DNA of 64,000 bases, taken from contig LCDG01000001.1 in assembly GCA_000998425.1 (NCBI GenBank), positions 10,558 to 74,557 on the forward strand. Reading direction: 5' to 3'. Positions 2,762-54,943 of this stretch are shown piece by piece. The DNA comes from Candidatus Nomurabacteria bacterium GW2011_GWC2_42_20 (GTDB lineage Bacteria; Patescibacteriota; Minisyncoccia; Phycocordibacterales; UBA1550). The number at the start of each line of letters is the position of its first letter. The first letter of the stretch is position 1. The position numbers were made by a program, and so were the translations under genes. The notes beneath the pieces were generated by a model that saw only the letters and a list, made by a program, of their open reading frames with translations, did no database searches and had not been told where the DNA came from.

Positions 2762-5298
2762 TTAAGAAAATAATTCTCACCACGATATTTGCATTTGCGG
2801 CATTACCTTCCATAGTATTGGCAGCAGTAGGAGATATGGTTACATATAATGTAACAAGCGTTGTCTATCCGTCCGACATTGTCTTTGATGGAACCAATAT
2901 GTGGGTGTCATCAAATGTTAATGGGTTTAGGGCTGCAAAAATCTCACCATCAGGTGTTGCAACATCATATCTATCAATGTCAAATGGCGGGCTTCCTGTT
3001 GGCATTGCTTTTGATGGGACCAATATGTGGGTAGTAGGTTACGTTGGTGATACTGTTACAAAGGTTTCTCCGTCAGGAGTTATGACCGATTATTTTGGTA
3101 CAGGAGCTGGTCCATGGGATATTGCGTTTGATGGTGTAAATATGTGGACAGTAAACGATGGATATACTGCAGGTGGCTACGATCCTTATACAGGTGAAGT
3201 TTATCCAGATACGTATGGTCCAACGAGTGTCACAAAAGTTTCTCCATCAGGCGCAATGACAACATATTATGGCACAGGCTCTTTAGCGGAAGGGATTGCA
3301 TTTGATGGTACAAACATGTGGGTAGCAAACTTTAGCAATAATAGTGTCACAAAAATTTCTCCCACAGGTGCCATGACAACATATACAGGAACTGGTGCTA
3401 ATCCATACCAACTTGCCTTCGATGGAACAAATATGTGGACGGCAAATTATGGCAATAATAGTGTCACAAAAATTTCTCCCACAGGTGCCATGACAACATA
3501 TACAGGAACAGGTGCTGGCCCTTGCGGTATTGCTTTCGACGGAACAAATATGTGGACAGGGAATTATAGCAATAATAGTGTCACAAAAATTTCTCCCACA
3601 GGTGCCATGACAACATATACAGGAACTGGTGCTAATCCATGTAATATTGCCTTTGATGGAACAAACATGTGGACCGCTAATCCGAGCGATAACACCGTTA
3701 CGAAGGTTGTCGCAGTATTACCAACTGGCACTGTCTCTGTCTACTCAAACATCTCATCCTCCTGGAGTATCACTGGCCCAGCAGCAATAACTGGCTCTGG
3801 CACCTCTCAAACATCAGTTTCACAGCCGACTGGGACGTATACTATTACCTGGGGCGCGATAGCTGGGTACACAACGCCAGCATCTCAGTCGTTCACCCTT
3901 ACCTCCGGCGGTACGATAAGTTTTAGTGGTACGTACTCGTTAAATTCCTACACCGTCTCCGCCACAGCAGGAGCAGGAGGTACCATCTCCCCAGCATCAC
4001 GTGTGGTCACATACGGCAACACCACCACCTTCACCGTAACTCCAAACGCTGGCTATACAGCCTCAGCTTCAGGTTGCGGTGGTTCACTCTCCGGCACCAC
4101 CTACACCACTGGAGCCATCACTGGAGCATGTACGGTTAGCGCTACTTACACGGCATCTATAGCTACGCCAACAGCATATATTTCTGCACCATCAACAGAC
4201 ACCTCTGTTTCTCAAAATACAGCAGTTGCTTTTTCTGGTAGTGGAACACCAATTCCTTCTACTTCAATACCAGCAACGCTAACATCTGTAAATGTTGGGT
4301 CAGTACAAAATTATGCCAACATGGCTGGACCATCTGTGATCCCGTCTCTCTGTCAATCTGGGGGATATTCAAGTGGGTATTTAGTAGCAATTCAATATAC
4401 TCCAGGTCAAATAGATTCACTTTTCCACTTTACTTATCAATGCACGAATGATACATACTCCTGCCCAGCCGATTACACGCTATCTGGAACAAATTGTATT
4501 TTTCAACCACTGATAATAAGCTACGAATGGCGTGAAGGTAACTGTACTACAGGAACCCTTCTATCATCTGCGTCAAGCTTTAATCTCTCAACTCCAACAC
4601 AAGGCACTCGTACTATATATCTTCGTGTAAAAGATTCTCAAGGCACCTGGTCAACAAATTGTCCGTCACGTGTTATTACTATTACATCATCCACCCCAAC
4701 CTCTCCCACAATCTCTGGACCCTCCACTTTAGTCACAGGACAGAGCGGAACATACTCTTTCGTATCAACAGACCCACAAGTGGAGCAAATCAGCTATGCG
4801 GTAGACTGGAATTCAGACGGAACAGATCTGTGGATGCCATACGGTTCAGTCCCACCACCTGGGAGTATGACATATGTAAACTCCGGAGTATCACAATCAG
4901 CATCTAAGTCTTGGGCAACACCCGGTACCTACACAGTCAGAGTCCTAGCTCAAGACACTTGGGGTAACAACTCAGCATGGACAACATACACTATCACTGT
5001 GTCAGACCCTCAACCATGTACAGCAGGAGTAGTAGACTCTTCTGGTTCATGGGCTCCAACATGCGCAACCTCTGCAACATGCCTCACTCCACCTGACCCA
5101 TCACAACTCACAAACCAGCCCGGTATTCAAATTGGCCTCTGTCCAACGCCAGAATACACCGGCACTGCCTACCGCGCCTGCTCCACAGCAACCATCACAT
5201 GTACTCCTGCCACCTCCTGTGGAGACAATACCTGCAACGGCTCAGAAACTATCCTTACTTGTCCAGCAGATTGCAAGGGGAGGTATCAGCAGTTCTAG
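2758..5298 (+). CDS. secreted multi-blade beta-propeller repeat protein (Vgb/streptogramin-lyase-like repeats), Thr/Ser-rich linker, Cys-rich C-terminal domain
   Basis: 846 aa; signal peptide MIKKIILTTIFAFAALPSIVLA. There are seven repeats of the pattern ...VTK(I/V)SP(S/T)G.MT.Y.GTGA.P..IAFDGTNMW..N... After them come a Thr/Ser/Gly-rich segment and a C-terminus with many Cys. Confidence 0.7.
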   Translation: MIKKIILTTIFAFAALPSIVLAAVGDMVTYNVTSVVYPSDIVFDGTNMWVSSNVNGFRAAKISPSGVATSYLSMSNGGLPVGIAFDGTNMWVVGYVGDTVTKVSPSGVMTDYFGTGAGPWDIAFDGVNMWTVNDGYTAGGYDPYTGEVYPDTYGPTSVTKVSPSGAMTTYYGTGSLAEGIAFDGTNMWVANFSNNSVTKISPTGAMTTYTGTGANPYQLAFDGTNMWTANYGNNSVTKISPTGAMTTYTGTGAGPCGIAFDGTNMWTGNYSNNSVTKISPTGAMTTYTGTGANPCNIAFDGTNMWTANPSDNTVTKVVAVLPTGTVSVYSNISSSWSITGPAAITGSGTSQTSVSQPTGTYTITWGAIAGYTTPASQSFTLTSGGTISFSGTYSLNSYTVSATAGAGGTISPASRVVTYGNTTTFTVTPNAGYTASASGCGGSLSGTTYTTGAITGACTVSATYTASIATPTAYISAPSTDTSVSQNTAVAFSGSGTPIPSTSIPATLTSVNVGSVQNYANMAGPSVIPSLCQSGGYSSGYLVAIQYTPGQIDSLFHFTYQCTNDTYSCPADYTLSGTNCIFQPLIISYEWREGNCTTGTLLSSASSFNLSTPTQGTRTIYLRVKDSQGTWSTNCPSRVITITSSTPTSPTISGPSTLVTGQSGTYSFVSTDPQVEQISYAVDWNSDGTDLWMPYGSVPPPGSMTYVNSGVSQSASKSWATPGTYTVRVLAQDTWGNNSAWTTYTITVSDPQPCTAGVVDSSGSWAPTCATSATCLTPPDPSQLTNQPGIQIGLCPTPEYTGTAYRACSTATITCTPATSCGDNTCNGSETILTCPADCKGRYQQF
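3290..3700 (+). repeat. three near-identical ~120-bp tandem DNA repeats inside the propeller gene (blade duplications)
   Basis: The unit agcaataatagtgtcacaaaaatttctcccacaggtgccatgacaacatatacaggaac... recurs at about 3334, 3454 and 3571, with a period of 117-120 bp. Confidence 0.6.
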
Positions 5299-7914: not shown

Positions 7915-7985
7915 AGCGGGGTAGAGAAGCGGTATCTCATCAGGCTCATAACCTGAAGACGCCCGTTCGATTCGGGCCCCCGCAA
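7915..7985 (+). tRNA. tRNA-Met (anticodon CAU; a 1:72 mismatch suggests the initiator type)
   Basis: Cloverleaf: D-stem gaga/tctc, anticodon stem tcagg/cctga with loop cTCATaa, T-arm gcccg-ttcgatt-cgggc. No CCA is encoded. Confidence 0.7.
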
Positions 7986-8026
7986 CACGAAAATTACAAA
8001 AATGCCGGCAGCTAGAATAAGATAAT

Positions 8027-8103
8027 GTCGGCGTAGCTCAGTTGGTTAGAGCATGGCACTCATAAAGCCAAGGTCGGTGGTTCGATCCCACCCGTCGACA
8101 CCA
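8027..8103 (+). tRNA. tRNA with CAU anticodon (elongator Met or lysidine-modified Ile2); CCA encoded
   Basis: Acceptor gtcggcg/cgtcgac, D-arm tagctcagttggttagagc, anticodon loop cTCATaa, T-arm ggtgg-ttcgatc-ccacc, followed by the 3' terminal sequence a-cca. Confidence 0.8.
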
Positions 8104-8136
8104 GAAAAACTCATTGATGAGTTTTTCTGGTGTCGA
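8095..8136 (+). terminator. perfect hairpin overlapping the 3' end of the tRNA (tRNA-processing/terminator structure)
   Basis: tcgacaccagaaaaactcat-tg-atgagtttttctggtgtcga. Confidence 0.45.
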
Positions 8137-8274
8137 AATTCAAATCAAATACATGATTTGTTCTGGTGGGATAAGTCCCTGTGTCCAAGACACGATTCAG
8201 CTGAATCGCCGTCGACACCCGCAGGTTTGTTTTGCGGACAGTTTCCTGTTAGAATGCGCATGTGAGAAAAATTT

Positions 8275-8348
8275 GCGGTCGTAGCTCAGCTGGTTAGAGC
8301 GCCCGCCTGTCACGCGGGAGGTCGTGGGTTCAAGTCCCATCGACCGCG
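8275..8348 (+). tRNA. tRNA-Asp (GUC)
   Basis: Perfect acceptor gcggtcg/cgaccgc, anticodon arm cccgc-ctGTCac-gcggg, T-arm gtggg-ttcaagt-cccat. Confidence 0.85.
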
Positions 8349-8349
8349 C

Positions 8350-8397
8350 AAATACAAAAATTACCTAACGCTGCTGCGCTGGGTAATTTTTGTATTT
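8350..8397 (+). terminator. 16-bp AT-rich perfect hairpin after tRNA-Asp
   Basis: aaatacaaaaattacc ... ggtaatttttgtattt. Confidence 0.4.
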
Positions 8398-8514
8398 AGG
8401 ATTGAAAAAATGGGCTAAATAGTGTATCGTGTCGAAGTGTCAGTGAGCCGATGTAGGTGTTTTGGTAGGTCTGCAAGAAGACAATAACTGTCTGTGATGT
8501 GCGAATAAAAATAA

Positions 8515-8590
8515 GCCGATGTAGCTCAGTTGGTAGAGTGCGTCCTTGGTAAGGACGAGGTCTCCGGTTCAATCCCGGACATCGGCTCCA
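8515..8590 (+). tRNA. tRNA-Thr (GGU); CCA encoded
   Basis: Acceptor gccgatg/catcggc, anticodon arm cgtcc-ttGGTaa-ggacg, T-arm ccggttcaatcccgg, 3' t-cca. Confidence 0.85.
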
Positions 8591-8663
8591 AATAAGATTT
8601 AGTTTAATTAACGACCACATTCTAGATTTGCTATTGGTCTGCGTGCTGTGTATAATTTAGCGT

Positions 8664-9116
8664 ATGTCTAATCTAAAAATGCCAAGGGGTGAGTGCCAGA
8701 ATTGTGGTGGGGAGCCCGCACGTGCAGGGTATAAATATTGTAGTAATGTTTGTCAGCTTGCGTACCAGCATAAATCGTATATTATAGACTGGAAGGCTGG
8801 AACGGTTAGCGGGTTATCTAGTCTTGGGACAGTGTCCACTCATATCAAACGCTACTTGCGAGAAAAGTATGGGAATAGATGTGTCATTTGTAGTTGGGCG
8901 CAGGTTAATGTTAAGACAGGTCAGGTTCCTCTTGTTGCAGATCATATTGATGGGAAATGGCGCAATAATACTGAAAGTAACCTGCGTCTAATATGTCCAA
9001 ATTGTGATGCAATTTCCCCAACGTATGCCGCATTAAATAAAGGTAATGGACGGATTAATCGCGTGCAGAGCCGAAGATCGCAGGAAGCTCGTTTGTTAGT
9101 AAAAAAGAAGGTGTAA
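8664..9116 (+). CDS. HNH-family endonuclease (Cys-rich Zn-finger plus HNH motif) embedded in the tRNA cluster
   Basis: 150 aa; two CxxC pairs at the N-terminus, then ...VADHIDGKWRNNTESNLRLICPNCDA... (H-N-H with a CxxC clamp). The stop lies 2 nt before the next tRNA. Confidence 0.7.
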   Translation: MSNLKMPRGECQNCGGEPARAGYKYCSNVCQLAYQHKSYIIDWKAGTVSGLSSLGTVSTHIKRYLREKYGNRCVICSWAQVNVKTGQVPLVADHIDGKWRNNTESNLRLICPNCDAISPTYAALNKGNGRINRVQSRRSQEARLLVKKKV

Positions 9117-9117
9117 G

Positions 9118-9191
9118 CCGACCTAGCTCAATTGGTAGAGCAACGGTATCGTAAACCGTAGGTTCCGGGTTCAATTCCCGGGGTTGGCTCA
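9118..9191 (+). tRNA. tRNA-Thr (CGU)
   Basis: Acceptor gccgacc/ggttggc (one G-U pair), anticodon arm acggt-atCGTaa-accgt, T-arm ccgggttcaattcccgg. Confidence 0.85.
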
Positions 9192-15977: not shown

Positions 15978-16048
15978 TGCGAGATCGTCTAATGGTAGGA
16001 CATCGCCCTCTGGAGGCGGTTATCTTGGTTCGAATCCAGGTCTCGCAG
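15978..16048 (+). tRNA. tRNA-Gln (CUG)
   Basis: U1:A72 acceptor tgcgaga/tctcgca with discriminator G, anticodon arm tcgcc-ctCTGga-ggcgg, T-arm cttgg-ttcgaat-ccagg. Confidence 0.8.
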
Positions 16049-52450: not shown

Positions 52451-53545
52451 CTACTTTTTCTCTGTGTATGAAAGAGTCATTTTCTGATCCTTTGCATCAA
52501 AGAGAGTAATGGTGAATGGGTATGTTCGGCCCAACTCGAGCTTCTTCTTAAGCTCCTCTTCTGTGCCAAACTCAGACACATGCACGAGTCCAGCAATCCC
52601 TTCTTCGAGAGATACAAGTGCGCCATAATTATTGAACTTGATAACAATACCGGTGACAGTATCTCCTTTCTTGTAGCGCTTCTCGGCGTCTTTCCAAGGG
52701 TTCTCCTTGAGGGCCTTGATAGAAAGAGAGATTTTGCCATCCTTGATCTCGATGACCTTTACACGGACCTTCTCGCCGATTTTGAACATTTTGCGTGGAT
52801 CATCAACGAGACCCCAGCCGATCTCTGAGATATGGACAAGACCCTCTACTCCATCTTCGAGTTTTACGAATACACCAAAGTCTACAATTCCGGAGATCGA
52901 ACCATCTAGTTCATCACCGTTTGAATATTTTCCTGAAATCTCTCGCTTCTCCTTCACTCCCTGCTCTTTTTCCGAGAAGATGAGCTTTCCTTCTTTTGGT
53001 GATGCGCCAATGATGGTCACAGCAATACGCTTGCCAATAAGCTTCTTGAGTTCAACAAGAATCTTATCCTTGTCGCCATCGTCTACACGAGGGTAGTTCT
53101 CGCTCTTTAGCTGTGAAGCAGGAAGGAAACCTTGAATCCCTTGCCACTCAATAATAAGCCCACCTTTATTTGCCTCCTTTACAGGTAGTTCGAGAGCCTT
53201 TTTTGATTTGATAGCTTCCTCGGCTTCGCTCCAAATAATAGCTTGTCGAGCTTCTTTTAGGGAAAGCTCAATATAACCGTCTTCGTTGTTTGTGTCGACT
53301 ACCTTTGCAGTAATTGTGTCGCCTATGTTCAACTTCTTGATAACATCGCGCGCGTTGATAAACTCACGTCCATAAATGATACCTGTGCCGATAGCACCAA
53401 GGTTCACATACACACATGATTTTGCAACACTAATGACTGGACCCTCCACGAGAGAATCATTCTCAGGGAGTGCCTTTACGTCAGCCATAAGTGTTGCCAT
53501 AAATGACAACGGAGTCTCTACTGTTTCCTCAATATCTTTTTTCAT
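52451..53545 (-). CDS. rpsA: 30S ribosomal protein S1 (four S1 domains)
   Basis: 364 aa; repeated S1 OB-fold motifs (GDTITAKVVD; GKRIAVTIIG; GEKVRVKVIEIKDGKISLS; GDTVTGIVIKFNNYGALVSL...HVSE). Confidence 0.9.
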   Translation of the reverse strand: MKKDIEETVETPLSFMATLMADVKALPENDSLVEGPVISVAKSCVYVNLGAIGTGIIYGREFINARDVIKKLNIGDTITAKVVDTNNEDGYIELSLKEARQAIIWSEAEEAIKSKKALELPVKEANKGGLIIEWQGIQGFLPASQLKSENYPRVDDGDKDKILVELKKLIGKRIAVTIIGASPKEGKLIFSEKEQGVKEKREISGKYSNGDELDGSISGIVDFGVFVKLEDGVEGLVHISEIGWGLVDDPRKMFKIGEKVRVKVIEIKDGKISLSIKALKENPWKDAEKRYKKGDTVTGIVIKFNNYGALVSLEEGIAGLVHVSEFGTEEELKKKLELGRTYPFTITLFDAKDQKMTLSYTEKK

Positions 53546-53742
53546 GAATTAAAAAATCCCATCAAACTTACGATATGTAAGACAAGCGGGATGTGTGAAC
53601 CTTGGTTTTCCCCCGAACGGGTATATCGGGATGGGGGAGGGTTAGCCTTGGAACTGCTTGTTATTAACTTGTTTAATATACAAGAAACTCTACATAAAAG
53701 CAAATTTATATTGGTTAAACCTATGGGGGGAATATTAATAAA

Positions 53743-53766
53743 AAAGGGGGCTTTTGGACCCCCTTT
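53743..53766 (-). terminator. GC-clamp hairpin with a T-run on the minus strand
   Basis: aaaggggg-cttttgga-cccccttt; on the - strand it is followed by ttttttattaatatt. Confidence 0.45.
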
Positions 53767-54079
53767 GTGTCATGTGATATTGGGATTATCCATCCCAGCC
53801 TTCCTCTTTCCAGCCGTCGTTGTTGATTTCTTCCCAACCTTCGCCAAATGTGATAGAGGCGTCCCCGTCCATGATGCTCTCCTTAAAAAAGTACCGCGTA
53901 TTGAAAAAGTATTTTGAATAGCTGAGTCACTTTCCTTTCTCGTTGTTGAAACTGCTTTAAGTGTAGCACTATCTGAAAAAAAGAAAACCCCGAAGCGCGA
54001 TGCTTCGGGGGACTGCACTGTTTATTTAGCGCTGTGCGTCAGTTGCGCTTCAAGGCAGGCGTGCGACCGCATGGACTGT

Positions 54080-54184
54080 TTAGTCGCTGCTGCCACCGCC
54101 GACCAGGCCGGCGCCGGTTGAGATCTCCAAAAAGTTTGCTTCCGATGCGGGACCGGCATGTGCTTGGGCGGTCATTTTTTTCAT
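54080..54184 (-). CDS. candidate small ORF (34 aa, Gly-rich C-terminus) in a GC-rich island; an alternative reading is that the island is a structured ncRNA
   Basis: atgaaaaaaatgaccgcccaagca... encodes MKKMTAQAHAGPASEANFLEISTGAGLVGGGSSD*. An SD gtgAGGAAatcgccATG sits upstream. Further upstream on the - strand are TTGACA-16nt-TATGCT, and a downstream hairpin ccccgaagc/gcttcgggg followed by ttttctttttt. Confidence 0.25.
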   Translation of the reverse strand: MKKMTAQAHAGPASEANFLEISTGAGLVGGGSSD

Positions 54185-54289
54185 GGCGATTTCCTCACTG
54201 TACGTTGATAACAACCACATGGTCGTCACCACCCCAAATCTTCAAGGGTGCAACAAGCATAGCAGATACATAGGATTTGTCAAGTACCA

Positions 54290-54943
54290 TTGCTGTCTGC
54301 TACAATGTTCTTCATGATTGTCACATATTATGGAAAGCAGTTTTTCAAGGTTCAGCTCGGGGAGCGAACTATTGCCTATAACCCAATTGGTAAAGACTCA
54401 AAAGAAAAGGGTTCACGTTTTGGAGCGGATATTGTGCTCTCGTCTCTCCGCCACCCAGATTTCAATGGCGCCGACCAGTGTGCGTACGGTGATCGTCAGC
54501 CTTTTGTTATTTCGGGACCAGGAGAATATGAAGTTGGCGGGATTTTTATAAAAGGTTTTGGTACAGAAACAAAGTATAGTAATGAAAAAAAGATCAACAC
54601 TGTTTTTTCTGTAATGTTCGAAGGAATCAACCTGTGCTTCCTTGGCTCGCTTGCGTCTCCTGACTCGCTTTCACGCGAAGTCAAAGAGGGTCTCGGAGAG
54701 ATTGATGTACTCTTTGCTCCTATTGGGAGCGGTGAGGAACTCTCAGCAGCAGATGCATACAAACTCACGCTTGCGCTAGAGGCAAAAGTTGTCATTCCAA
54801 TGGACTATGAACAGACAAAGGGAAGTCTTGAGGCATTTATAAAAGAGAGCGGTGAGAATGCCGAGACAATGGAAAAATTTACCTTTAAAAGAAAAGATCT
54901 TGAAGGGAAGGAGGGTGGCGTTGTTGTGCTAAAATCAGCCTAA
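54290..54943 (+). CDS. MBL-fold-like protein with a degenerate metal-binding motif
   Basis: 217 aa. ...TYYGKQFFKVQLGERTIAYNPIGKD...GADIVLSSLRHPDFNGAD... is positionally equivalent to the HxHxDH block of UPF0173/UlaG-like MBL hydrolases, but only one His is retained. Confidence 0.45.
   Translation: MLSATMFFMIVTYYGKQFFKVQLGERTIAYNPIGKDSKEKGSRFGADIVLSSLRHPDFNGADQCAYGDRQPFVISGPGEYEVGGIFIKGFGTETKYSNEKKINTVFSVMFEGINLCFLGSLASPDSLSREVKEGLGEIDVLFAPIGSGEELSAADAYKLTLALEAKVVIPMDYEQTKGSLEAFIKESGENAETMEKFTFKRKDLEGKEGGVVVLKSA

Follow-up and report, generated by a model that had tools for sequence, protein, structure and literature searches.

Introduction

Most characterized products of bacterial small open reading frames (sORFs; at most 50 amino acids, aa) are hydrophobic membrane peptides or regulators of the product of a neighboring gene. 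Bacteria of the Candidate Phyla Radiation (CPR) have tiny genomes and almost no experimental genetics, and to our knowledge hardly anything has been learned of the small genes and regulatory RNAs that their annotation misses. Here we analyzed a 64,000-nt stretch of DNA from Candidatus Nomurabacteria bacterium GW2011_GWC2_42_20 (contig LCDG01000001.1, positions 10,558 to 74,557; hereafter the window, whose numbering is used unless another locus is named) and, within it, the spacer that separates a gene for a metallo-β-lactamase (MBL)-fold hydrolase from rpsA, the gene for ribosomal protein S1. We hold with high confidence that the spacer contains two real small-protein genes, here called ORF A and ORF B, plus a structured rpsA leader. 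The account we favor, and judge probable from comparisons of related genomes, is that these are two autonomous orphan small-protein genes, with peptides that act in trans, in a hot-spot beside a new S1-leader candidate. Any specific function proposed for the peptides is doubtful at this stage.

Like other bacterial sORF genes, ORF A and ORF B are monocistronic, have a strong Shine-Dalgarno (SD) sequence, encode 28–34 aa without a detectable domain, and are restricted to one lineage; as is also common for such genes, gene callers miss or over-extend them (database entry P0001 is a 46-aa overcall). They differ from most sORFs in that their products are hydrophilic (Gly/Ala/Thr-rich for ORF A, acidic and Trp-rich for ORF B), belong to no described family, and are encoded by interchangeable cassettes clustered in a single spacer.

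A second group for comparison is that of the arrest peptides. RAGP, RAPP and RGPP cores arrest ribosomes and tolerate varied upstream sequence, and the Arg of the core is essential, AAPP being arrest-defective (PMC12992588). The known RAPP-like arrest peptides regulate Sec/YidC, Cu or TonB genes and not rpsA (PMC12992588, PMC10987492). With SecM (RAGP), ApdA and ApdP (RAPP) and ApcA (RAPG), the family of ORF A shares a short core ending in A-G-P, which in several members is literally (I)RAGP, a variable upstream and remaining peptide, and a position upstream of, and co-oriented with, an essential translation-related gene. In contrast to these systems, most members of the family lack the essential Arg, their motif is N-proximal rather than C-terminal, they have neither an N-terminal signal nor a transmembrane sensor domain, and rpsA has its own promoter.

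The S1 leader of E. coli is narrowly distributed, and elsewhere only a cyanobacterial motif has been proposed (PMC3616713). Like the E. coli rpsA leader and the Cyano-S1 motif, the leader in the window is a covarying 5′ untranslated region (UTR) that adjoins rpsA, with a ribosome-binding region predicted to be paired and a weak or atypical SD; it has no similarity in sequence or structure to the gammaproteobacterial and cyanobacterial leaders (no Rfam match). Finally, a tentative comparison is with the ComS/XIP, SHP and Phr pheromone precursors, which are matured from the C-terminus and are likewise tiny and unmodified, carry pherotype-like C-terminal blocks and evolve rapidly. Unlike them, ORF A and ORF B lack an adjacent receptor of the Rgg/RRNPP type, have neither Opp genes nor an exporter in their neighborhood, and encode no hydrophobic mature region.

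Results

ORF A and the unit that carries it

The spacer holds three independent units on the minus strand: unit A (54283–53976), unit B (53968–53740) and rpsA. The spacer and the features of unit A are as follows.

53546 to 54313: spacer of 768 nt between the probably leaderless MBL-fold gene (plus strand) and rpsA (minus strand)
54256 to 54283, minus strand: unit A promoter, with TTGACA at 54283–54278, 16 nt, and the extended −10 box TGcTATGCT at 54264–54256
54207 to 54250, minus strand: unit A 5′ UTR with two hairpins, H1 (54250–54230, CACCC..GGGTG) and H2 (54230–54207, GGTGACGACC/GGTTGTTATC)
54191 to 54196, minus strand: SD of ORF A, GAGGAA, 6 nt before the ATG
54080 to 54184, minus strand: ORF A, 34 aa (MKKMTAQAHAGPASEANFLEISTGAGLVGGGSSD), an A-type small protein with an A-x-A-G-P motif at residues 8–12
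54029 to 54048, minus strand: 3′ UTR hairpin, GCGC-AACUGACGCACA-GCGC, part of a 3′ UTR of ~70 nt
53976 to 54010, minus strand: terminator T1 of unit A, CCCCGAAGC-AUCGC-GCUUCGGGG followed by UUUUCUUUUUUU

An earlier sequence-only reading of this DNA had described about 750 bp without a long ORF and, within it, a GC-rich island at 54020–54280. Both descriptions hold: the spacer extends over 53546–54313, the quoted segment has 53.3% GC (98th percentile among 261-nt windows), and the overlapping segment 53988–54248 (261 nt) tops the GC content of the whole 64 kb (57.1% vs. a mean of 41.7%). ORF A alone is 58% GC, and the island is GC-rich because of GCN/GGN/CCN codons and GC-rich hairpins. The same reading gave the SD-led 34-aa ORF (54184→54080) its exact coordinates. 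Its sigma70-like TTGACA-16-TATGCT is also present, with a TG at 54264–54263, but lies about 20 nt upstream of the site quoted.

The evidence that carries ORF A comes from the spacer sequences of 31 close-clade loci. In Yonathbacteria-clade genomes, the MBL-rpsA spacer encodes a family of 18 or more distinct peptides of 14–46 aa, here called the A family, each of them preceded by an SD. Their common N-proximal motif is A-x-A-G/D-P (ARAGP, ATAGP, AQAGP, AHAGP, ATADP, IRAGP). A blind scan for ^M.{0,9}[AS].A[GD]P covered 53,179 small ORFs, taken from the two strands of 160 loci and of the window, and 33 matched; 20 of the matches have an SD, and 20/20 of these lie in the MBL-rpsA spacer on the rpsA strand. 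In the motif codons, positions 1 and 2 change hardly or not at all, and position 3 is free to vary. Specifically, the Ala-1 codon has only G or T at position 1 (Ala/Ser), the Ala-3 and Pro codons are invariant at positions 1–2, and the Gly/Asp codon varies, besides its third position, only at position 2; the third positions seen are A/G/T, C/A/T, C/T and A/C/T/G (GCA/GCG/GCT/GCC; GGT/GGC; CCC/CCG/CCA/CCT). The ATG precedes the motif by 6, 9, 15, 18 or 21 nt, always a multiple of 3. This codon-periodic motif and its multiples-of-3 spacing indicate that ORF A is translated.

The subgroup to which the window belongs has its indels in frame and keeps the blocks N-[FL]-L-[DN]-N-S-I and L-A-G-T-K-G-D. 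The SD-proximal ATG is the only conserved start of ORF A, and the in-frame starts upstream are not conserved. Gene callers record ORF A as the 46-aa overcall P0001 in five JGI contigs, and no record of the 34-aa form was returned by an exact-sequence look-up; the three JGI contigs that were fetched are 100% identical across the spacer and uninformative. ORF A combines an SD-led conserved start, third-position substitutions and in-frame indels, as a genuine sORF would. The suggestion that the island encodes a small Gly-rich peptide is borne out by this codon-periodic conservation, in-frame length variation and conserved SD and ATG, the peptide being Gly/Ala-rich. An Arg-rich plus-strand ORF (54034–54273), already regarded as an artefact, is a 79-aa antisense frame; the variable sites of the motif fall on third codon positions of the sense strand, which supports the sense frame.

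Taken together, the substitution patterns lead us to conclude that ORF A is translated and that at least its motif and subgroup blocks are under selection at the amino-acid level. By the same comparisons, the peptide as a whole evolves very fast. The ratio of nonsynonymous to synonymous substitution (dN/dS; NG86) is 0.37–0.5 for the closest pairs and ~0.7–1.0 for distant pairs (21–36 codons), and ORF A peptides are 30–44% identical between genomes whose S1 proteins are 92–96% identical. C-terminal blocks are the same within subgroups and different between them (LAGTKGD, MAGIKGS, IGAGG, LVGGGSSD).

Consensus scans found five promoters (1.9±1.6 expected) and three terminators (1.4±1.1 expected). 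These counts are within chance, so the significance of the signals rests on their conservation in relatives. The arrangement of promoter, SD, ATG and terminator is found again in this spacer in many related genomes, and the unit A promoter is near-invariant (cTTGACAAAT..GTATCTGCTATACT) in about two-thirds of the clade's spacers, mostly at spacer position 31. H1 and H2 are both predicted by RNAalifold on four orthologous units, with one-sided and compensatory changes. The T1 hairpin found by the terminator scan (54010→53988) has 9 bp, 7 of them GC, with a T-run to 53976, and differs from that of loci L005, L008 and L021 by one compensatory pair (C-G to G-C). With its consensus extended −10 box, SD, ORF A and T1, all conserved in relatives, unit A has the makeup of an independent sigma-70/intrinsic-terminator unit.

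At the RNA level, the unit A promoter and ~70-nt 3′ UTR are 85–91% identical among the window, L005, L008 and L021, despite saturation of rpsA synonymous sites between these genomes (dS 1.4–1.8; third-position identity ~55%). The layout in this subgroup is GCGC-AACUGACxCxCA-GCGC, then UAAAUAAACAGUG, then the terminator with its loop. The 3′ UTR hairpin has no second copy in the window, and in the loci that were fetched it occurs only in A units of the subgroup; other A subgroups lack this 3′ UTR and have unrelated terminators instead. It therefore cannot be a common function of the A family. Its identity would reflect either selection on the RNA or recent exchange of cassettes. The unit A transcript folds modestly better than shuffled sequences (z = −1.9, single-sequence fold), and RNAalifold on the four orthologous units supports the two 5′ UTR hairpins, the 3′ UTR hairpin and the terminator. 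The same alignment fold contains no covarying structure across ORF A and no conserved antiterminator alternative to T1.

The unit A promoter consensus (cTTGACAAATaatgtGTATCTGCTATACT) was also seen in a phage contig, L164 (7067–7737; IMGVR_UViG_3300035148_000392, with terminase and portal genes), where it drives an unrelated 198-aa protein. It is thus a consensus promoter of the lineage and not a marker of the cassette, and its presence suggests that L164 is a phage of Yonathbacteria-like hosts. A phage origin of unit A was considered and rejected: the 3′ UTR hairpin is absent from viral contigs, and the promoter there precedes an unrelated gene.

Unit B and ORF B

Between T1 and the next terminator, T2, lies a second unit that the sequence-only reading overlooked.

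53960 to 53968, minus strand: extended −10 box of unit B, TGCTACACT, with no good −35
53873 to 53952, minus strand: unit B 5′ UTR in its short form, ~80 nt, GUUUCAAC..GAGAAAGGAAAGUGACUCAGC .. UACUUUUUUAAGGAGAG
53884 to 53878, minus strand: SD of ORF B, AAGGAGAG
53786 to 53872, minus strand: ORF B, 28 aa (MDGDASITFGEGWEEINNDGWKEEGWDG), whose acidic product contains three Gly-Trp motifs
53740 to 53766, minus strand: terminator T2 of unit B, AAAGGGGGU-CCAAAA-GCCCCCUUU then UUU (hairpin 53766→53743 in the scan)

Two minus-strand terminators had been proposed for the region, and the scan recovered both (54010→53988 and 53766→53743); the second, however, belongs to unit B and ends the separate ORF B gene. 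Orthologues of ORF B were found in L001 (2 aa changes), in L081 (P0014) and as P0013. Between the window and L081, dN is 0.11 and dS 1.14, with 3/3/9 differences at codon positions 1/2/3, and the database variant P0013 retains the core FNEAWEEITHDGWKEDGWDGITKM behind an altered N-terminus. By these measures ORF B is clearly coding and under strong purifying selection (dN/dS ~0.1). Its coding signal is clearer than that of ORF A, and it appears from the same comparisons to be the more strongly conserved of the two. The −10 box is kept (TGCTAcACT/TGCTAtACT) at the head of B units in L003, L081/82, L083, L002, L089, L009 and L010, and equivalent GGGGCUCC-aaaa-GAGCCCC terminators follow B ORFs in relatives. 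More distant B-type units retain the promoter, leader and SD context and encode Asp/Gly/Trp-rich ORFs of 9–44 aa with motifs such as WPDGDGI and GWED.

B units have leaders of two forms. The short leader, without a hairpin, is carried by the window, L081 and L083; its pattern, seen in aligned B leaders, is unique in the window and occurs among the loci only in B units. A long form was observed on the rpsA strand in L002 (~3520–3650), L003 (~3545–3665), L087, L007, L009 (~3475–3600), L089 and L090. It contains a hairpin with compensatory changes (UCAAG/CUUGA, UCAGG/CCUGA, UUAAA/UUUAA, UCGAG/CUUGA) that encloses the conserved loop CCGyCGnGAGGUGAC. Ahead of the hairpin stands GAAAGGA(n)GGUGAUCC, a near complement of the 16S rRNA 3′ end. 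This long leader has no Rfam match and may be an uncharacterized cis-regulatory RNA.

A structured leader with its own promoter precedes rpsA

52451 to 53545, minus strand: rpsA, with four S1 domains
53675 to 53703, minus strand: rpsA promoter, TTGCTT (53703–53698), 17 nt, TATATT (53680–53675)
53546 to 53668, minus strand: rpsA 5′ leader of 123 nt, with helices P1–P4 and a UCCCG/UGGGA pairing
53661–53656 with 53587–53582, minus strand: P1, ACAAGC/GCUUGU
53650–53646 with 53597–53593, minus strand: P2, GUUCC/GGUUC, with two U-U mismatches in the window genome
53638–53633 with 53614–53609, minus strand: P3, UCCCCC/GGGGGA
53581–53567, minus strand: P4 hairpin
53591–53587 with 53561–53557, minus strand: UCCCG predicted to pair with UGGGA, an SD-like box 11 nt before the ATG

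In every clade locus the interval between the rpsA promoter and the leader is fixed, and promoter and leader are retained where the spacer has no small ORF (L016, L097, L012/L091). Since T1 and T2 are also strong, rpsA is independent of units A and B. RNAalifold on 21 distinct leaders gave P3 and the pairing of UCCCG with a U/CGGGA box before the start codon; five of the six P3 pairs show compensatory changes (CCCCC/GGGGG, CUCUUGG/CCAAGAG, CUGCGCG/CGCGCAG, CUCGG/CCGAG). A fuller model adds P1 (ACAAGC/GCUUGU) and P2 (GAGCC/GGCUC). Over the 21 sequences, 89.7% of its cells are paired (25–47% in slid registers), 11 pairs have compensatory changes, and the compensatory cells number 52 vs. 18.4±3.6 in shuffles (0/500). 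The UCCCG/UGGGA pairing is 97% maintained but nearly invariant, with only G-U to G-C changes, so covariation is no proof of that pairing.

Nested inverted repeats compatible with S1 autoregulation had been noted in this leader. The acaagc/gcttgt and CCCCC/GGGGG repeats are real and conserved, but the inner cccgaacggg hairpin has no support in relatives. The wider suggestion of a structured leader compatible with autoregulation agrees with our alignments, in which a conserved, covariation-supported RNA structure lies directly upstream of a ribosomal protein gene. The leader is, on this comparative evidence, a good candidate for a new S1 leader.

Elsewhere in the clade, P2 is a perfect GUUCC/GGAAC (L087) or GAGCC/GGCUC (other loci). 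Set against these two perfect types, the P2 mismatches make the window leader look like a recombinant of two leader types, which fits frequent recombination in the spacer. An inverted repeat, CCCATAGG-N(3-40)-CCTATGGG, was also observed directly upstream of the rpsA −35 in L003, L016, L021 and L090; the window keeps one half only (CCCCATAGG, 53720–53728). This repeat could be an operator or an insulator hairpin.

Distribution and turnover of the units

The closest public S1 relatives (top hits, 98% to ~78% identity) are from Candidatus Yonathbacteria and other Paceibacteria/Patescibacteria metagenome-assembled genomes (MAGs). The divergent MBL-rpsA arrangement extends far beyond this close clade, with spacers of 114 nt to >3 kb overall and 210–2069 nt within the clade. 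The A promoter is present in 17 of ~26 distinct spacers; several spacers have two A or two B units and some have none. A and B units are always co-oriented with rpsA and show presence/absence, duplication and reshuffling between close relatives. Both families occur only in Yonathbacteria-like genomes and, in all sequence examined, only in the MBL-rpsA spacer; no other copy was found in the 64-kb window by tblastn with 11 family peptides, a promoter regular expression and motif searches. The best reading of this distribution is that the spacer is an insertion hot-spot for fast-evolving orphan small-protein cassettes.

Several other elements were seen in spacers of relatives. A-type units with a 5′ UTR of 140–200 nt occur in L003 (spacer 154–314), L089 (148–300), L009 (225–400) and L010 (145–283 and 610–750). 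This UTR, absent from the window unit, is closed by a long-range stem, GUUCUGG ... CCAGAAC/CCAGGAC, contains conserved inner hairpins and looks like a structured leader or riboswitch-like domain. Enlarged spacers carry tRNA-like elements (L010 2959–3031, L009 3007–3077, L089 1514–1584; also L090, spacer ~45–135) that score 35–46 bits against Rfam tRNA, though ARAGORN calls none. On visual inspection, their T-arm is canonical (GUUCGAUUC), their acceptor stem is extended and their anticodon loops differ (GCA in L090, UGA with C33 in L089), and they may be integration-site remnants or unusual tRNAs. Another hot-spot cassette lies between the A and B units of L009 (spacer 953–1186) and L089 (811–1044), namely a 77-aa Cys/His-rich ORF (MSLELLPADPDSPRRFHVRQNYCRCHTETCSHKDW...) with its own TGCTAGACT −10 box. 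In L007 (spacer 749–811), a hybrid peptide, MNNARDGPHFFSFNSKGWDG, joins an A-like N-terminus (A-R-x-G-P) to a B-like C-terminus (GWDG), a hint that modules pass between the two families or that both go back to one origin.

Flanking genes and searches for known families

54277 to 54306, plus strand: MBL-fold promoter, TTGTCA, 18 nt, TGcTACAAT (10/12 match, TG present)

The MBL-fold gene (Lactamase_B_3) has its true start at the ATG at 54314 (MIVTYYGK), which tblastn found kept in relatives. Its −10 box ends 7 nt before this ATG and there is no SD, so that its mRNA is, judging from this layout, probably leaderless; a TGCTACAAT-like box stands next to the MBL start in all aligned relatives. The −35 of this promoter (TTGTCA, 54277–54282) shares its base pairs with the unit A −35 (TTGACA) on the opposite strand, which may bring the two divergent promoters into competition for RNA polymerase.

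The 16 flanking genes (42.3–63.8 kb) encode S1, the MBL-fold hydrolase, GyrA, an ECF-type sigma factor with a DUF5667 protein, a TSP3-repeat protein, a DEAD-box helicase, an ABC-F ATPase, a PAS protein, a large LCAT-domain protein and hypotheticals; a Pfam scan of them found no peptide maturase or dedicated exporter. Both strands were checked against Rfam, as the earlier reading had advised, and no known RNA emerged for unit A, unit B or the rpsA leader. At gathering score, cmscan with Rfam 15 matched only six tRNAs in the whole window, all outside the spacer: a cluster of five at 7915–9189 and one at 15978–16048 (plus strand). A permissive scan of 53400–54450 (E≤10, both strands) gave only sub-threshold chance matches, at T2 or in the MBL coding sequence. 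In 12 related loci the spacer was empty in the Rfam scan except for weak tRNA-like matches, and six related loci contained no tRNA or tmRNA according to ARAGORN. The other check advised, of conservation and covariation in relatives, found the ORFs, promoters, terminators and rpsA leader structure to be conserved.

Searched as proteins, ten peptides of the two families matched nothing in Pfam or NCBIfam (E≤10), and the single PDB match for either family, to ubiquitin (E = 4.1), is noise. A phmmer search of 1.84 billion representatives returned ORF A itself only. Profile searches of 5.8 billion clusters returned 10 proteins of the A type and 5 of the B type, every one of them a peptide of this kind. 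Two come with a source name, from MAGs of Paceibacterota and Yonathbacteria, and another seven match ORFs of the related loci exactly. Inspection by eye led us to reject a Sec signal peptide (no hydrophobic core), a prepilin leader, a lipobox, a lasso or lanthipeptide core and a microcin C-type C-terminal Asn.

Discussion

The account that we favor for the locus is that of two autonomous genes whose peptides, made in large amounts, would be functional products that act in trans. For the A family, the conserved N-proximal motif would be a recognition or processing handle and the subgroup-specific Gly-rich C-terminal tail a specificity determinant; by analogy, we infer that a conserved N-motif with variable tails is typical of peptides in cell-cell or host interaction. 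The 3′ UTR of unit A probably adds a role at the RNA level, as a stability element or a 3′ UTR-derived small RNA. The rpsA leader probably represses translation by sequestering the GGGA box, plausibly through feedback by S1.

Several observations weigh against this account. Transcription and translation of the units are deduced from sequence evolution only. ORF A evolves fast, its dN/dS nears 1 in distant pairs, and beyond the motif the alignment of the whole A family is weak (30% mean column identity), so that large parts of the peptide may be free of constraint, which is compatible with a cis-acting leader no less than with a trans-acting peptide. ORF A of the window is itself a divergent member, with HAGP and the tail GGGSSD instead of LAGTKGD. 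The strict co-orientation with rpsA, and a promoter and 3′ UTR far more conserved than the ORF, are both left unexplained by a simple model in which the peptide is the product. No partner, whether receptor, transporter or modifying enzyme, lies among the 16 neighboring genes scanned. Finally, the identity of the UTRs could reflect recent recombination between strains and not selection.

The first alternative is that ORF A is a cis-acting leader peptide, in which a pause or arrest of ribosomes at the early SecM-like A-G-P site alters mRNA folding or T1 efficiency. Transcription past T1 toward unit B and rpsA, or else what becomes of the conserved 3′ UTR, would be tuned in this way, and S1 production would be coupled to translational status. 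The short A-x-A-G/D-P motif is the sole element common to all members of the A family, the rest of the peptide and its length drift, and five members (L004, L006, L096, L099 and the second ORF of L089) have exactly RAGP or IRAGP. RAGP is the arrest core of SecM, and RAPP-like cores accept varied upstream sequence (PMC12992588). The co-orientation with rpsA and the conservation of promoter and 3′ UTR beyond that of ORF A, which trouble our account, would also be in keeping with a leader. However, the core Arg is essential in characterized RAPP-like peptides, and only 5 of ~18 members have it, the others having T, H or Q (HAGP in the window), or D or S for the G. The motif lies at residues 3–12 with 8–35 codons after it, and not near the C-terminus; in the window it is followed by 22 codons, the 70-nt 3′ UTR and a strong terminator. 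Subgroups also keep C-terminal blocks (NSIS, LAGTKGD, IGAGG) that a pure arrest leader would not need, both T1 and T2 are strong, the alignment fold lacks a conserved antiterminator alternative, and rpsA, with its own conserved promoter and leader, occurs without any unit in sister genomes. We therefore consider a cis-acting leader unlikely. A related proposal by analogy, that the A-x-A-G-P peptides form a new class of short, N-proximal, SecM-like (RAGP-type) pausing leader ORFs, is a long shot; there, a stall a few codons after initiation, together with the conserved 3′ UTR and terminator, would set read-through into rpsA.

A second alternative is that the functional product of unit A is an RNA, either the transcript or a 3′ UTR fragment with the GCGC hairpin and terminator, the ORF being incidental or secondary and the unit dual-function at most. 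Unit A does coincide with the most GC-rich segment of the window, folds modestly better than shuffles, has covarying 5′ UTR hairpins, and carries a window-unique 3′ UTR hairpin within ~70 nt that, loops included, stay 85–91% identical over saturated synonymous divergence. Against this, neither strand matches an Rfam family even at E≤10, ORF A has a protein-level signature with in-frame indels, the conserved 3′ UTR is limited to the one subgroup (window, L005, L008, L021), and target complementarity was not found. An RNA product seems improbable to us, and the idea of the sequence-only reading that the island is a classic non-coding RNA does not stand, with no Rfam family on either strand and no covarying structure across ORF A.

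It is less probable still that one or both ORFs encode precursors of peptides that are modified or exported, such as a ribosomally synthesized and post-translationally modified peptide (RiPP), a double-glycine bacteriocin or a pheromone cut from the C-terminus. Such precursors would account for small, highly expressed, rapidly diversifying genes whose products keep their N-part and have C-terminal blocks particular to each subgroup. An internal GG with a tail of 7–12 residues behind it is present in many A peptides, and B peptides have DGW and DGDG motifs, which presumably resemble streptide-type KGDGW precursors and the Ca-binding TSP3 repeats. Yet there is no radical-SAM enzyme, YcaO, LanB/C, C39-peptidase ABC transporter or other maturase among the 16 neighbors scanned, and no NCBIfam or Pfam precursor family is matched, which leaves little room for the bacteriocin/RiPP-like precursor suggested at the outset. 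Moreover, the peptides have almost no Cys and neither a signal peptide nor a hydrophobic segment, and the hydrophobic positions of double-glycine leaders fail to align. By analogy, the subgroup C-terminal heptapeptides (LAGTKGD, IGAGG...) may nonetheless be diffusible pherotype signals in these episymbiotic bacteria. Least credible is the view that the ORFs are young or non-functional by-products, without a selected product, of a highly transcribed, recombination-prone spacer: the gain, loss, duplication and reshuffling of units between close relatives, their orphan status in databases of 1.8–5.8 billion proteins and a dN/dS near 1 in distant ORF A pairs fit it, but protein-level conservation of the motif across genomes with rpsA proteins ~77–83% identical, a dN/dS of ~0.1 for ORF B and the maintenance of near-consensus promoters, SDs and terminators do not.

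The locus thus offers two orphan families of small proteins, for whose translation the comparative evidence is unusually clean and of which one has a SecM-like A-G-P motif, in a hot-spot of gained, lost, duplicated and shuffled cassettes beside an essential gene. The previously undescribed rpsA leader would extend S1 autoregulation beyond Gammaproteobacteria and Cyanobacteria. If the pausing-leader reading were true, a minimal CPR cell would have a translation-status sensor for ribosomal protein S1, and if the peptides are signals or competition factors, the finding would bear on how episymbionts interact with their hosts and kin. Otherwise, the finding corrects the annotation by two missed genes, one over-called gene and one apparently leaderless gene.

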